A stretch of DNA of 64,000 nt. It comes from Vulcanimicrobiota bacterium. GTDB taxonomy: Bacteria > Vulcanimicrobiota > Vulcanimicrobiia > Vulcanimicrobiales > Vulcanimicrobiaceae. Location of the stretch: assembly GCA_963833095.1 (NCBI GenBank), contig CAWHWQ010000005.1, forward strand, positions 224,001 through 288,000. The letters are read 5' to 3'. The stretch's first letter is position 1. Each line of letters opens with the position of its first letter. A program made the translations under genes and the position numbers. Positions 3,780-13,370 of the stretch are shown here, piece after piece. The notes under the pieces are model-generated. The model did not search any database and was not told the DNA's origin. It worked only from the letters and a program-made list of their open reading frames with translations.

Positions 3780-6431
3780 GTGATTCGCTCCGACGAGCGC
3801 GTTGATGGCGCGCTGTTCGACCGCTTCAACGCGAGTGTCGCGACCGCGGTCGATGCCGTACGCCAGGCGTCGGAGGCTATTGCCGCCACCGCGCAAGAGC
3901 AAACGACGCTGATGGTCGCGCTCTCCGATACGGCCGGTACCCTTGCCTCGGCCTCCCGCGAGACGGCCGAGCGGTTACAAAGCGCTCAATCCTCGGCGCG
4001 CGCGGCAGCTTCGGACCTCGGAAACTCCTTTGAAGTCGTCGAGAATTTGTTGACGTCGGTGCAGCAGCTGGCTGAACTTTCCGCCGACACCGCGACTGCG
4101 ATGGACGACTTCGGCCGGCTCATGAGTGAGATCGGCCGGATGACCGAATTCGTCGAAGACGTCAGCGATGAAACGCAGCTGCTCGCACTCAACGCGGCAA
4201 TCGAAGCCGCGCGCGCCGGACAACACGGGTTGGGCTTCGCCGTCGTCGCCGGTGAAGTCGGCCGTCTCGCAAAGACAACGAACGAATCCACCACGGCGAT
4301 CAAGACGCTCGTCGTCGAGATTCAGCGCGAAGCTGAGGCCACGATTCAAGCGGTGCGCGCTAACGCCGAGCGTTCGGCCGCGTCGACGCCGCTCGCGGAC
4401 GTTGCGCGCAGTTCGCTTGCCGAGATCGCCGAACTCGCCGCTGATCTTTCGGTAACCATTGATCGCGCCGTTATCAGCGGCCGCGATCACAGCCATGCCG
4501 CCGAGCAAATGCGCAAGTCGACTGATGGCCTTGCCAATGTTGCTGCCGCGCAGGGCCGCGAAGCGCTCGAATCCGCGTTCGCGACGCAGCGCCTCGCCTA
4601 TTACGGCGCTGAGATCGAGTACATCTCGCGTTCGCGCACGGCATCCAAGAGCGATCACACGACGATCAAGATTGCGACGCTGCTGCCGCCAGGCTATCCG
4701 CCGTCGCGGGCATGGGAGTTTGTCGCGCAACGCGCCTTGGAACTCTCAGAAGGACGCTTGCGCTTCGAGTTGGAGATTCCGTTCACCGGCGGCAATGAGA
4801 TGGAAGCACTGTTGCGCGTACGTTCCGGCGAGATCGACATGGTAAGCGTCACGACCTACGTCGCCGGCGCGCTGGTGCCGCTGGCGCAATTGCTCGACCT
4901 GCCCTTTGTTTTTCCGGATCGCGAGTCGGCGCACCGTCTGCTCGACGGCCCGCTCGGCCAGACCATCCTCGAGTCGTTCGAGTCGTTCGGCTTACATGGG
5001 CTCGCGTTTTTCGAAAACGGGATGCGGCATTTCACCAACAGCCTGCACCCGATTCGCCGGCCGTCGGATATGCGCAAGATGCGCGTGCGCATCCAGGACT
5101 CGGTCGTCTATCTCGCGCTCATGCACGCGCTTGGAGCATCCCCGAAGGTCATTCCCTTCGGCGATGTTTATCGTTCGCTCCAGAACCACGAAGTCGACGC
5201 GCAGGAAAATCCTCTCCCCAACACGCTGGGCGCGCGGCTCCATGAAGTGCAGCGTTATCTCTCGCTCACCGCTCACACCTATAACACGCAGATCGTGCTT
5301 GGGAATATCGAGCGCTGGCGTTCGCTTCCGGCGCAAGACCGCGAGATCATCCAGCAAGCCTTCAAAGAAGCAACCGACTTTCATCGCCGCGTCTCCGGCG
5401 ATGACGACCAGCACGCGCTCGCCGAACTGCGCAAACACCTCGAAGTGCATGAACTGCAGCCTGATGAACGCGAGGATTTCGTGAAGACCTCGCGCTTTGT
5501 GTGGGAGCGCATGGAACCGCTCTTTCCGACCGACGTGTTCCGCTTGCTCCTCAACCGCAACTTGGAAACCTGGCGCCCGCGCGTCAATCTCGGCGCCCAC
5601 GCGTCGACCCATGGATTTACGCTCAACGACATCGTCGAATCGATCGACCGATCGGTCAGTTCGGTGCGCGCGACCGGCGATACGATCGGCACGCAGTCGC
5701 GCTCGCAGATTGCCAGCCTCAATGCGCTTTCGCAGCAATCTATGGAGCTGAGCGGATCGAACGAGCAGCTTGCCAAGGCTTTTTTGGGGCTGGGCGACCG
5801 TTTCGAGCAGGTCGCCCCCCAGGTTCGCATCATGCGCGATACCGTCGGCGAGTTGATCGACACGATCAACGTCCTTTCGTCGATGGCGATACAAAGCCGC
5901 AATGCGCTCGATCAATTCGCCAAGTCAATGCATCAGATTTTCAACATCATCAACTTGGTGCGCTCGGTGTCGGATAAGACCAATCTACTCGCGCTCAACG
6001 CCGCGATCGAGGCGGCACGCGCGGGCGACCACGGCAAGGGCTTTAACGTCGTCGCGGGAGAGGTGCGCGGCCTGGCCGATAAGACCAAAGCGTCGACGGT
6101 GAATATTCGCAAAGTCTTGAGCGATCTCGAAGCGCGGGGCAAATCCGCGGGCGTTGCAATCGAGAACGGCGTGGCGAAAGCCGAGCATAGCGCGCGTCAG
6201 GCGCGCATGGCGCAAGAGGCATTCGGACGTATCGAGCAGTTCGCCAGCTCTGCCCAGTTTACGCTCGAGCAAGCCCAGGATGCCGCGAACGATGAAGCGC
6301 GGCGCGCGTACGCGATGTACGGTGATTACTCGCAGATGGCTGCGCTGGTTGAATCGCACGCGCAGGACAGCCGCGCTGCACTCAGCTCAACGGTCGAACT
6401 CGAACGCCAACGCCGCGCCCTGTTCCAATAG
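3780..6431 (+). CDS. Soluble chemoreceptor with two methyl-accepting signalling domains flanking a TRAP DctP-type solute-binding domain
   Basis: [14 protein letters not shown] occurs twice. The central region has DctP motifs ([39 protein letters not shown]). No TM segment or signal peptide is visible. Confidence 0.88.
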
Positions 6432-6432
6432 C

Positions 6433-6496
6433 CGTCATCCTGAGGTGCGGCCCCTGTCACCCTGAGGTGCGGCCCTTAGGGCCGCCTCGAAGGGTG
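6433..6496 (+). repeat. CGTC/TGTC-tagged REP-like palindrome: one partial plus one full copy
   Basis: CGTCATCCTGAGGTGCGGCCCC followed by TGTCACCCTGAGGTGCGGCCCTTAGGGCCGCCTCGAAGGGTG, which folds into a hairpin. Confidence 0.8.
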
Positions 6497-6668
6497 CGCC
6501 CTCGGACGTTTTGCCATTCTGCGGACTTCTCCCCAATCTCCGTTTGAAAATGCAATCTTTTTAGCGCGGCTCCAGCCTTTGAGATGCTTTTCCCAGGCAA
6601 CGGCGTCATCGAAGTTCGCAAATTCCGAAACATGCACGCATCGCAGGGGGCGTCTCTTAGACAACCCG
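6476..6668 (-). pseudogene. Truncated GIY-YIG nuclease (C-terminal half only)
   Basis: SKRRPLRCVHVSEFANFDDAVAWEKHLKGWSRAKKIAFSNGDW matches the C-terminus of small YhbQ-like GIY-YIG proteins. The N-terminal GIY/YIG motifs and a start codon are missing. Confidence 0.7.
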
Positions 6669-6673
6669 TCTCG

Positions 6674-6733
6674 CGCTTCGAGGCTCGCTTCCGCTCGCAC
6701 CTCAGGGTGACAAACGCTGGCCTCAGCGTGACA
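6674..6733 (-). repeat. REP-like palindrome, inverted relative to the 6433-6496 copies (partial plus full)
   Basis: Minus strand reads TGTCACGCTGAGG...TGTCACCCTGAGGTGCGAGCGGAAGCGAGCCTCGAAGCG. Confidence 0.78.
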
Positions 6734-6737
6734 ACAG

Positions 6738-7502
6738 CTAGTACTCGAGCACGACCGGGGTCTGTTCTTCCATGATTTGCGCGACGCTCGCGCGGAAGCG
6801 TTGTGCATCGCCGCTGGTAACATAACGCGTTGTTCCGGATCCGGCCTGCGTTTCATCGAGTGCGAGAAAATCAGCCAAACGCGTCGCTTGCACGAACGCC
6901 GGATCGATCAAATCGACCCGATCGTTAAGCGCCGCGCGAAAATGTTGTTCTAACACCGGATAGTGGGTGCAGCCGTAGACCACGGCGTCGAGATCTGGCG
7001 GAAGCGCCGCGCAGGCGCGCGCCACGGCGTCGCGAGCCGCTGGGCCGCTGTGCTGACCCGCTTCGACGAGCGGGACGAGTTCGGGCGCGGGAACCTCCCA
7101 CACTTCACTTTCGTGAATCGCGTTGCGAACGCGCCGGCCGTAGGCTCCGGAGCGCACCGTCGCCTCGGTCGCCACAATACCGATGCGCCGCGCACCCGAG
7201 CGTTGGAGCGCAATCGTCGCCGAATCGAGGAGATCGAAGACCTCGGCGCGCGTGGTGGGCCAGCCGTACACGTCCGCGATCGCGCACGAAGTGTTGCAAG
7301 CCATGACGATCGCTTCGACACCGCGTTCATCGAGCCACGCCAGATTGTTTTGTAGCAGCGCGAAGAGATCGTCGGGTGTGCGACCACCGTACGGCACGTG
7401 CGCCTGGTCGGCATAGTAGAGCAGGTCGACGTCGGGTAGACGCTCGCGTACGCGTCGAATGACGGTAAGGCCGCCCAGCCCCGAGTCAAAGAGTCCGATC
7501 AT
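6738..7502 (-). CDS. murI: Glutamate racemase
   Basis: MIGLFDSGLGGLTV, ACNTS and GCTHYP catalytic motifs; ATG overlaps the amidase stop (TAATG). Confidence 0.96.
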   Translation of the reverse strand: MIGLFDSGLGGLTVIRRVRERLPDVDLLYYADQAHVPYGGRTPDDLFALLQNNLAWLDERGVEAIVMACNTSCAIADVYGWPTTRAEVFDLLDSATIALQRSGARRIGIVATEATVRSGAYGRRVRNAIHESEVWEVPAPELVPLVEAGQHSGPAARDAVARACAALPPDLDAVVYGCTHYPVLEQHFRAALNDRVDLIDPAFVQATRLADFLALDETQAGSGTTRYVTSGDAQRFRASVAQIMEEQTPVVLEY

Positions 7503-12317: not shown

Positions 12318-12704
12318 ATGCTTCTTGCGCTGTTACTTGCCCTCGTTCATCCCAGCTTGACGTCGGCGGTCGCGCAAGCAACGCCCACGCCGACAACGCT
12401 GACGTACCGAACCTACATTCGCCCGCGCTTCGAGTCGTTCGGTTACGCCGGCGAAATGCGCATCACAATCGTTGATGGTTACGTGAACGGAACGTACCGT
12501 CCCGACACGGGTGGCACGCTAACTCCGGTTCGCGGAGGAAGCCAAGGATCGGATATCTGGTTCGATATCGCGACCCTTGGCGGCGTCCACATCCAAGGAA
12601 CGGTGAAGGGTGACGGGACGATCACGGGCGTCGGCGCGCCGGCCGGCCCGTCGGGCAAGCAGTACGTGTTTACCGCGAAGCCCGAAGCGTCACCCTCGCC
12701 TTAG
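12318..12704 (+). CDS. Hypothetical secreted protein
   Basis: Signal-like N-terminus MLLALLLALVHPSL; extended -10 (TGcTATCAT) 8 nt upstream. Confidence 0.65.
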   Translation: MLLALLLALVHPSLTSAVAQATPTPTTLTYRTYIRPRFESFGYAGEMRITIVDGYVNGTYRPDTGGTLTPVRGGSQGSDIWFDIATLGGVHIQGTVKGDGTITGVGAPAGPSGKQYVFTAKPEASPSP

Positions 12705-13234
12705 ACCGGCAGGGACGGATGCGCGTCGTGCACGGCTTTCCATGACGCGTAGAAGGCCAGCGCCGCGGTCAAGATACCAGCGTAGCCGCCGAATTGGATC
12801 ATCGAGGGTACGCCGAAACCCGCACCGATCCAAAGCAGGATGAACGTGATCGACAGCACGATGAAGACCAGCTTCACCGGCAGCGCCGTATGGCGGACCG
12901 CTTCGATCGTCATGTACAGCGTGAAGATCATCCATGCGAAGAGAATGTAGGCGAGATCGTTCGGGTTCTTCGGAGTGACGAACATCGCCCAGAATCCCGT
13001 GCCCATCCAGAACGCACCATACGACGTAAAGGCTAGCGCGCCAAAGGTGTTCCCCGAGGGGAACTCCCACATGCCGGCCAGCAGCTGCGCTGCGCCGCCG
13101 TAGAAGAACGCGAATCCGAGAAACGCGTCGCCGACGGGCATTCCCGCGTTCTTTGCTGAGAGCAAGAAGGTCGTAAGTGCAAAGCCAGCGAGCCCTAACG
13201 CGGCCGGGTTCGCTATTTTCGGTGGTGATACCAT
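12701..13234 (-). CDS. satP: Acetate uptake transporter (SatP/YaaH/GPR1-FUN34 family)
   Basis: ANPAALGLAGF and GNTFGALAFTSYGAFW motifs; six TM segments. Confidence 0.9.
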   Translation of the reverse strand: MVSPPKIANPAALGLAGFALTTFLLSAKNAGMPVGDAFLGFAFFYGGAAQLLAGMWEFPSGNTFGALAFTSYGAFWMGTGFWAMFVTPKNPNDLAYILFAWMIFTLYMTIEAVRHTALPVKLVFIVLSITFILLWIGAGFGVPSMIQFGGYAGILTAALAFYASWKAVHDAHPSLPV

Positions 13235-13370
13235 ATGAAAAAGGCCTCCACGAAAAGTTGCAGTGTGTAGAATAGAGCAATATACAAAAACGCGGGCCCA
13301 CCTGCTTGGGGAATCGAGCGCCGGGGAGCGCCGCGAATAACCGCGAAGCACCTTAGACGGAGGCCGCCCG

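Follow-up and report, generated by a model that had tools for sequence, protein, structure and literature searches.

A soluble Vulcanimicrobiota chemoreceptor with a DctP domain between two signalling hairpins, a putative single-chain pseudo-heterodimer

Chemoreceptors, or methyl-accepting chemotaxis proteins (MCPs), normally work as homodimers, in which the two subunits are identical chains that stand in different places, one at the trimer axis and the other facing the kinase. The closest described protein in layout may be DosM of Vibrio cholerae (VC1403), which is reported to have tandem signalling domains, to be accompanied by a triple CheW and to have homologues of which 98% are sensorless (PMC9321776), and which is described as spanning two baseplates (PMC7534058). 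On the side of the sensor, the solute-binding proteins of tripartite ATP-independent periplasmic (TRAP) transporters have a carboxylate site that is reported for 4P47 as Arg152, Arg173 and Asn213 with an aromatic residue at 196 and an acidic one at 76 (PMC11668362). Here, we have analysed a window of 64,000 nucleotides from a Vulcanimicrobiota bacterium (contig CAWHWQ010000005.1, positions 224,001 to 288,000), which encodes a protein with a DctP-type solute-binding domain between two MCP hairpins. Although databases name such two-hairpin proteins TRAP subunits, the protein is predicted to be an MCP with a true DctP domain, and it is rather probable that its N- and C-terminal hairpins (hereafter N and C) are paired within one chain, which would make this soluble chemoreceptor a single-chain pseudo-heterodimer.

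The gene is a single open frame of the plus strand (3780..6431, GTG start, 883 amino acids), and all of its parts follow one another on that strand: the N hairpin (residues 5-287, 3792..4640), the DctP domain (residues 292-598, 4653..5573), a linker (5574..5615) and the C hairpin (residues 613-883, 5616..6428). Each hairpin has a 14-residue tip motif, at residues 134-147 (4179..4220) and 736-749 (5985..6026), respectively. Pfam assigned MCPsignal (PF00015) to two stretches with 179.6 bits, above the gathering score, and DctP to residues 300-578 (E 3.4e-70, profile positions 3-282 of 286), while TIGR00787 dctP scored 217.9 (cutoff 175). Of the 120 proteins obtained when the DctP region was used as query, 84 have two tips, a length of 838-903 amino acids and 53-97% identity to the query; both tips are invariant in all 84. 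The highest hydropathy of any 19-residue segment (1.62) lies inside DctP, neither a twin-arginine (Tat) motif nor a lipobox was found, and, by a hydropathy proxy rather than SignalP, a signal-like hydrophobic N-terminus occurs in 0/84 homologues versus 93/108 free DctP proteins. The receptor is thus predicted to be soluble, with neither a transmembrane helix nor an export signal. A preliminary description of this stretch, which had proposed one frame with an MCP hairpin at each end, a complete DctP domain in the middle and no transmembrane helix or signal peptide, is borne out on each of these points.

The two hairpins are alike in build. Helices are modelled by AlphaFold at residues 5-146, 150-287, 615-748 and 752-882, the arms have approximately 135-140 residues (which would suggest 38-40 heptads; ungapped to PcaY over the aligned part only), and the C hairpin matches the N hairpin in length and ungapped register. 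Both are ungapped around the tip in 84/84 homologues, with a tip-to-tip spacing of 598-606, and the a/d heptad core is hydrophobic in 6/6 N windows and 5/6 C windows (a = -0.2 in the last C window). The linker from DctP to the C hairpin is variable in sequence (mean identity 0.43 over columns 591-612) and low in predicted local distance difference test score (pLDDT, approximately 45 at 603-611), with a near-constant length (F582 to F613, 29-34 residues in 82/84 homologues).

To examine how the hairpins pair, heptads were assigned from the tip, and the charge pairs on each of the two flanking faces were scored for the homotypic combination (N:N and C:C) and for the heterotypic one (N:C and C:N). 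Over the full length, the heterotypic combination had the better c/g score in 84/84 homologues (mean -9.0; swap-null P 0.02, for one of two faces tested), including both subclades (63/63 and 21/21), and its score was the lowest of 13 heptad slides, the next being -5.9; the contributing pairs include D110-R786, E131-K768, D79-R817 and R674-D222. The b/e face had no pairing preference (P ~0.5). We take c/g to be the inter-subunit face because Tsr E385, a g position in this register, is reported to adjoin the C'-helix of the other subunit (PMC6681711). Compared to 21 single-hairpin receptors less than 60% identical (mean -1.05, maximum +3), the N:N score on this face (+3.62) is above every control, and the difference between hetero and homo pairing (-8.46) is lower than in any of the 210 control pairs (mean +2.51, standard deviation 3.31, minimum -6). 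An automatic register filter failed all 84 N hairpins; per-position hydropathy shows an intact register, with an a-d-g core near the tip. The AlphaFold model of the full-length monomer (pLDDT 84, predicted template modelling score 0.62) packs both hairpins together in one four-helix bundle, since the single-chain four-helix bundle 6Z0C aligns across both of them (model residues 96-805, 199/199, root-mean-square deviation (rmsd) 3.0, Z 16), and the lone hairpin of a related single-hairpin class reached a pLDDT of only ~55-76. Prediction of a complex of two N hairpins and one C hairpin scored 0.19 against a mark of 0.32 and was not used as evidence. Pairing of N with C is therefore considered likelier than a double-ended arrangement of the DosM kind.

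Several points weigh against this pairing. A monomer prediction is biased toward burying the hairpins against each other, and the lone-hairpin control had a shallower alignment (34 rows versus 84). Size complementarity between N and C is lacking, as their core layer volumes rise and fall together (partial r +0.57 over 38 layers). The charge score is a crude heptad geometry applied to related sequences and amounts to about six pairs, and one c-c pair (-31/+32) favours the opposite pairing. In addition, the charge, model and volume tests do not tell intrachain pairing apart from a swapped antiparallel dimer, in which N of one chain would pair with C of a second and vice versa, giving a rod of ~45 nm that would carry a tip at either end and two DctP domains at its centre and bridge two baseplates as DosM does. 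Such a dimer is a considerably less likely alternative: it accounts for the N:C charge complementarity equally well, both tips are strongly constrained (column identity 0.89 and 0.84), the linker from DctP to the C hairpin is flexible, and sensor domains are described in the middle of sandwich arrays (PMC3964821). However, pairing within the chain has a concentration advantage and is what the model shows, most carrier genomes have neither a triple CheW nor a second Che set (34/41 have exactly two CheW-domain matches), and the estimated length, at 135 residues x 1.5 Å per hairpin, exceeds the spacings of 27-35 nm reported in PMC3964821. The pseudo-heterodimer is the preferred reading.

With regard to the sensor, alignment maps the 4P47 site onto E340, R416, R437, F460 and N477, which are invariant in 84/84 homologues, as are most further pocket positions. 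The preliminary description had placed the carboxylate-binding arginine in the motif RVRIQ (residues 435-439), and the second arginine of this motif, R437 (5088..5090, plus strand), indeed aligns with the salt-bridge residue Arg173 of 4P47. The domain is modelled in an open form and matches open TRAP proteins (rmsd 1.8 Å to 4P47; Z 36.1 and rmsd 2.1 over 303 aligned residues to 8T9T); the 50 matches listed in a structural search of the model, a list filled by DctP, include no chemoreceptor chain. Among the nearest solved relatives, the ligand of 4XEQ is given as pantoate, and 4X8R and 7BBR are reported to bind glucuronate and 2-keto-3-deoxygluconate (PMC11668362). A small hydroxy-carboxylate is accordingly named here as a candidate ligand, at the level of a guess somewhat short of an even chance, the best guess as to type being a hydroxylated monocarboxylate such as pantoate, erythronate or an aldonate. 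Two facts weigh against it: these relatives are only ~30-34% identical, and the DctP family is described as having very diverse ligands and no clear preference (PMC10443332). Gene neighbours were rejected as a source of ligand evidence, as none is conserved and the benzoyl-CoA-reductase-like and ABC-operon contexts differ by clade. Weak-acid diffusion is only a possibility as the way in for a ligand, given that the one cultured member of the phylum is reported to grow at pH 4.5-8.0 and to be without flagellin (PMC9758169). A SatP/YaaH-family channel gene (PF01184, E 4e-36) lies on the minus strand at 12701-13250, ~6 kb from the receptor, and might be an entry route for monocarboxylates.

It is improbable, in our view, that the receptor is real but its DctP domain is not a carboxylate attractant sensor, serving instead to hold a constitutive cofactor or peptide, to read out pH or energy state, or mainly as a spacer. 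The diversity of DctP ligands would allow this, no catabolic gene travels with the family, its neighbours being clade-specific, and the adaptation sites are mostly missing: the strict methylation consensus (heptad b-c) occurs in no N hairpin and in 3/84 C hairpins, so strict sites are largely lost in both halves, a point that also weighs against the preferred reading. The only conserved candidate in the N hairpin is a loose site at E40 (69/84), and local transmembrane receptors also mostly match only loosely. Nevertheless, the entire pocket, beyond the fold alone, is invariant across homologues that are 53-97% identical, and the MarR regulators fused to a DctP domain of this clade have genes that mostly lie directly upstream of an uptake operon, as expected of a metabolite sensor.

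The two hairpins differ at their tips. The N hairpin has Q148 at the position of Tsr E391, and L151 and G161, invariant in 84/84, at those of Tsr R394 and R404, with F153 kept. The C hairpin has D750 and keeps K753, F755, E761 and R763, with Lys in 76/84 homologues and Arg in 84/84 at the R394 and R404 positions; the equivalent of F396 is thus retained in both hairpins. Tsr R394 and R404 are reported to contact CheW in simulations of the E. coli system (PMC6954272), and R404 has been linked to cooperativity (PMC6954272; PMC13098124). Further from the tip, H237 and E839 (each in 83/84) are opposed at a core position that is Gln in single-hairpin relatives.

These features bear on a homotypic double-ended dimer, with N:N' at one end and C:C' at the other, which would be the direct analogue of DosM with an inserted sensor. 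Chemoreceptors are homodimers as a rule, and the parallel variation of core volume in N and C is what self-packing hairpins would show; DosM itself is described as a rod with a signalling domain at either end (PMC7534058). Such a dimer is nonetheless very unlikely for this protein, because none of the 21 controls repels itself as strongly on the inter-subunit face as N:N does, the tip of an N2 dimer would have neither of the arginine equivalents reported as CheW contacts (PMC6954272), and the triple CheW that marks the F9 class was found in no carrier.

A fusion of separate genes in assembly, or an exported transporter subunit, has a negligible chance of accounting for the locus: the source assembly does have frameshifts in other places and one related locus (L069) is frameshifted in the linker between DctP and the C hairpin, but the 84 two-tip proteins come from many sources and have no signal peptide by the hydropathy proxy, a full-length frame of 877-931 amino acids is found in 45/51 related loci (the remaining six comprise four truncated at contig ends and two with frameshifts), an ESM Atlas cluster has 249 members, most commonly from Vulcanimicrobiota, and short-read contigs, from a single study and possibly from the source sample itself, span both domain junctions with zero differences (X1 record 3, 4304-5099; X4 record 28, 5102-6146). 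The homologue set therefore refutes both explanations, and the single gene assumed in the preliminary description stands. The frameshift at L069:7760-7794 would yield an MCP-DctP protein plus a free hairpin; it is a single case and probably an error. In the source genome, a 714-residue membrane receptor and cheB are frameshifted and flagellar frames are fragmented (C3:48.0-50.2 kb, C1:154-170 and 186-188 kb), which points to indel errors in that assembly. An apparent bare MCP of 214 residues proved to be a frameshifted piece of this membrane receptor, and two proteins considered as extra classes (P0096, 788 amino acids; P0119, 808 amino acids) were set aside, as they resemble a chimera and a frameshift.

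Several relatives share the DctP domain of this receptor. In a DctP tree of 96 rows, for which free DctP proteins were sampled only from the search matches of this analysis, double-hairpin, single-hairpin, MarR-fused and one class of membrane-anchored proteins form one clade (Shimodaira-Hasegawa-like approximate likelihood ratio test (SH-aLRT) 99), and this signal-peptide-less clade contains none of the 38 free DctP proteins. Soluble single-hairpin MCP-DctP proteins (~600 amino acids, some with altered pocket residues) occur in 12 of 301 genomes of the phylum and are likely the sister class of the two-hairpin receptor. MarR-DctP one-component regulators (~450-490 amino acids) were found in eight of the 301, one being the unpublished G259, and at 6/7 loci read they lie directly upstream of what by eye resembles a branched-chain-type ATP-binding cassette (ABC) uptake operon. 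The membrane-anchored MCP-DctP proteins (~690-725 amino acids) have two transmembrane helices with little or no outer domain, a HAMP domain, one hairpin and a C-terminal DctP; they are annotated as TRAP subunits and include proteins named from Uliginosibacterium, Propionivibrio dicarboxylicus, Viridibacterium, Formivibrio and Holophaga. As further membrane-anchored fusions are placed at two or more separate positions in the tree, the DctP of these receptors has been recruited more than once. Reuse of the DctP clade with different outputs supports an intracellular sensing role.

As for the origin of the two halves, N and C hairpins are sisters in the trees (98/92), with single-hairpin MCP-DctP next, and duplication of the hairpin within an MCP-DctP ancestor that had only one is the probable source of the receptor. 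Support for the sister relationship drops to SH-aLRT 86 with more outgroups, and the tree program warned of long-branch joins in the 98/92 tree, both of which count against this origin.

In the genome collection, 51 loci encode the two-hairpin receptor. The titles of 34 name Eremiobacterota, Vulcanimicrobiota or related genera (some of which we take to belong to this phylum), and seven bear other phylum labels, which we read as mislabelled because these loci have 72-96% identity and the same gene order. The taxonomic spread, a point raised in the preliminary description, comes to 42 of the 301 phylum genomes searched, all in the single Eremiobacterota family of the source genome; the 301 include genomes marked unpublished (G259, G219, G250, G166, G201 and G236), none of them among the 42 carriers. 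All 12 genomes of the source genus carry the gene, versus 0/66 in another genus that has no CheA match, and within the family it is present in 39/104 CheA-positive and 3/116 CheA-negative genomes, relatives that are not independent of one another.

Carriers appear to have one flagellum-linked CheA/CheW set. Flagellin-family genes are present in 42/42 carriers and CheA in 39/42, the three misses being assemblies of 290-550 contigs. The 41 carriers other than the source genome have exactly two CheW-domain matches in 34 cases, three or four in separate frames in four, and none in three fragmented genomes; no concatenated triple CheW was found in any of the 42. A strong DctM match was found in six carriers, a weak one in one and none in 35, three single-contig genomes included. 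In the source genome (80.7% complete), cheY-cheC-cheA-cheW adjoin flhA, cheR, cheB and flagellin-family genes are present, and neither CheD nor DctM gave a match; one CheW accompanies CheA. The CheW, CheA, CheR and CheB genes lie on contig C1 and the receptor window on C5, in line with the earlier remark that the window has no che genes. By comparison with the ~135 residues here, the arms of the main membrane receptors in these genomes are longer (~190-220 residues), so that their arrays could accommodate a capped single bundle beneath the membrane. Unusually long signalling arms (~200-220 residues) were also noted in conserved membrane receptors of the family (L106-L132). On another contig of the source genome (L013:4651-8987, C2), a 560-residue membrane MCP that has no recognised sensor is flanked by two MCP-less Cache-domain proteins, a trio that may represent one receptor whose sensor and signalling parts are divided between different chains.

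The gene itself is an orphan that points away from an OmpR-type regulator/kinase pair and converges on murI. The latter is present at 33/52 loci, mostly convergent and downstream, and neither che nor dctQM genes were evident among the clustered neighbours of the loci, DctQ itself not having been searched for. In the clade L079-L088, the receptor is preceded by lysine 5,6-aminomutase and followed by PAS-LuxR and TetR regulators and benzoyl-CoA-reductase/Had/Oah-like genes, calls that all fall below the NCBIfam cutoffs; in another clade, it lies upstream of an ABC operon. A promoter scan of the gene detected nothing, and no RNA run was among the matches listed in a search of sequencing runs. Immediately downstream (window 6434-6739), direct and inverted repeats resembling repetitive extragenic palindromes surround a minus-strand remnant of a GIY-YIG nuclease (E 9e-4, below cutoff), and their core motif has 31 copies in the source genome.

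Taken together, these observations allow a mechanism to be proposed. The N and C hairpins would fold together into the four-helix bundle that ordinary receptors build from two identical chains, and one DctP domain would cap the end of the bundle distal to the tip. An intracellular small carboxylate would close the two DctP lobes. As TRAP solute-binding proteins are reported to begin in lobe I and end in lobe II (PMC11668362), lobe closure could shear the hairpin halves: a short conserved junction would tie the N hairpin to lobe I, a looser linker would tie the C hairpin to lobe II, and closure would shift one hairpin against the other and change CheA activity at a single shared tip. The receptor may join the arrays of the cell's only Che system, so that the internal organic-acid level would bias flagellar swimming. 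Following hairpin duplication, the halves would have diverged into non-interchangeable partners, only the C half retaining the two basic residues that contact CheW in the E. coli simulations.

We therefore put forward, tentatively and as something closer to one chance in three than to an even one, that this protein is a natural single-chain asymmetric receptor, in which one polypeptide supplies both subunits and one Venus-flytrap domain pulls the halves through its two lobes, the C hairpin being specialised to face CheW and CheA and the N hairpin the trimer axis, and that it stands at the far end of a class of cytoplasmic DctP sensors that has evolved repeatedly and been overlooked (receptors, both soluble and membrane-anchored, and MarR regulators), its members being annotated as transporter subunits. 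If this is true, the receptor would separate trimer-axis and kinase-facing roles that are hard to split by homodimer genetics, and a fused heterodimer with invariant substitutions in one half, at residues of CheW contact and cooperativity, would be a ready tool for studying subunit roles. It would also represent a new way of coupling a bilobed binding protein to a four-helix bundle. DctP would have been recruited as an intracellular sensor more than once, with versions in cultured Betaproteobacteria that are open to study, and a systematic misannotation of such proteins as transporter subunits would be corrected.

Compared to known systems, the receptor would signal from inside the cell, as do Aer2, TlpC and HemAT, which have other sensor folds and are homodimers. 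It shares the C-terminal placement of a cytoplasmic solute-binding domain relative to a hairpin with the single-hairpin and membrane-anchored MCP-DctP proteins, and ESM Atlas fusions of MCPs with Phosphonate-bd, NMT1 or SBP_bac_3 have the same order; in each case, this placement implies a cytoplasmic sensor. The single-hairpin and membrane-anchored proteins have one hairpin per chain with a canonical GRGF and E-x-R-K tip and are therefore expected to be ordinary homodimers; no description of them was found in the literature searched. In Tar-MBP, Tap-DppA and CtpL-PstS, a binding protein likewise feeds a chemoreceptor (PMC10443332), but these binding proteins are separate periplasmic proteins. 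Neither the MCP-DctP-MCP architecture nor any fusion of DctP to a chemoreceptor was found described in the literature searched, PMC8050422, PMC9602780 and PMC3964821 included; the remark in the preliminary description that the architecture was not known as described thus holds to that extent, with subscription journals poorly covered and a listing in a review or supplement possible. The TRAP solute-binding proteins (DctP, PF03480, TIGR00787; 4P47, 4XEQ, 4X8R and 7BBR) have the same fold and the same Arg/Arg/Asn/aromatic/acidic site, whereas here there is no signal peptide, the domain is fused between hairpins and 35/42 carriers have no DctM match. Together with the invariant pocket and the clade fused to single hairpins and MarR, this supports the suggestion in the preliminary description that a TRAP binding protein was repurposed for intracellular sensing. 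Its further suggestion of a DosM-like sandwich-array scaffold is less well supported, as charges and AlphaFold favour N:C pairing with one tip. DosM and the F9 class do resemble the receptor, in that a single soluble chain contains both MCP signalling domains (PMC7534058, PMC9321776). However, the domains of DosM stand in tandem, whereas here a complete DctP domain of ~300 residues lies between the hairpins and the hairpins are predicted to pair with each other; a triple CheW goes with DosM and occurs in none of the 42 carriers, and the receptor is therefore not considered a member of the F9/DosM group.

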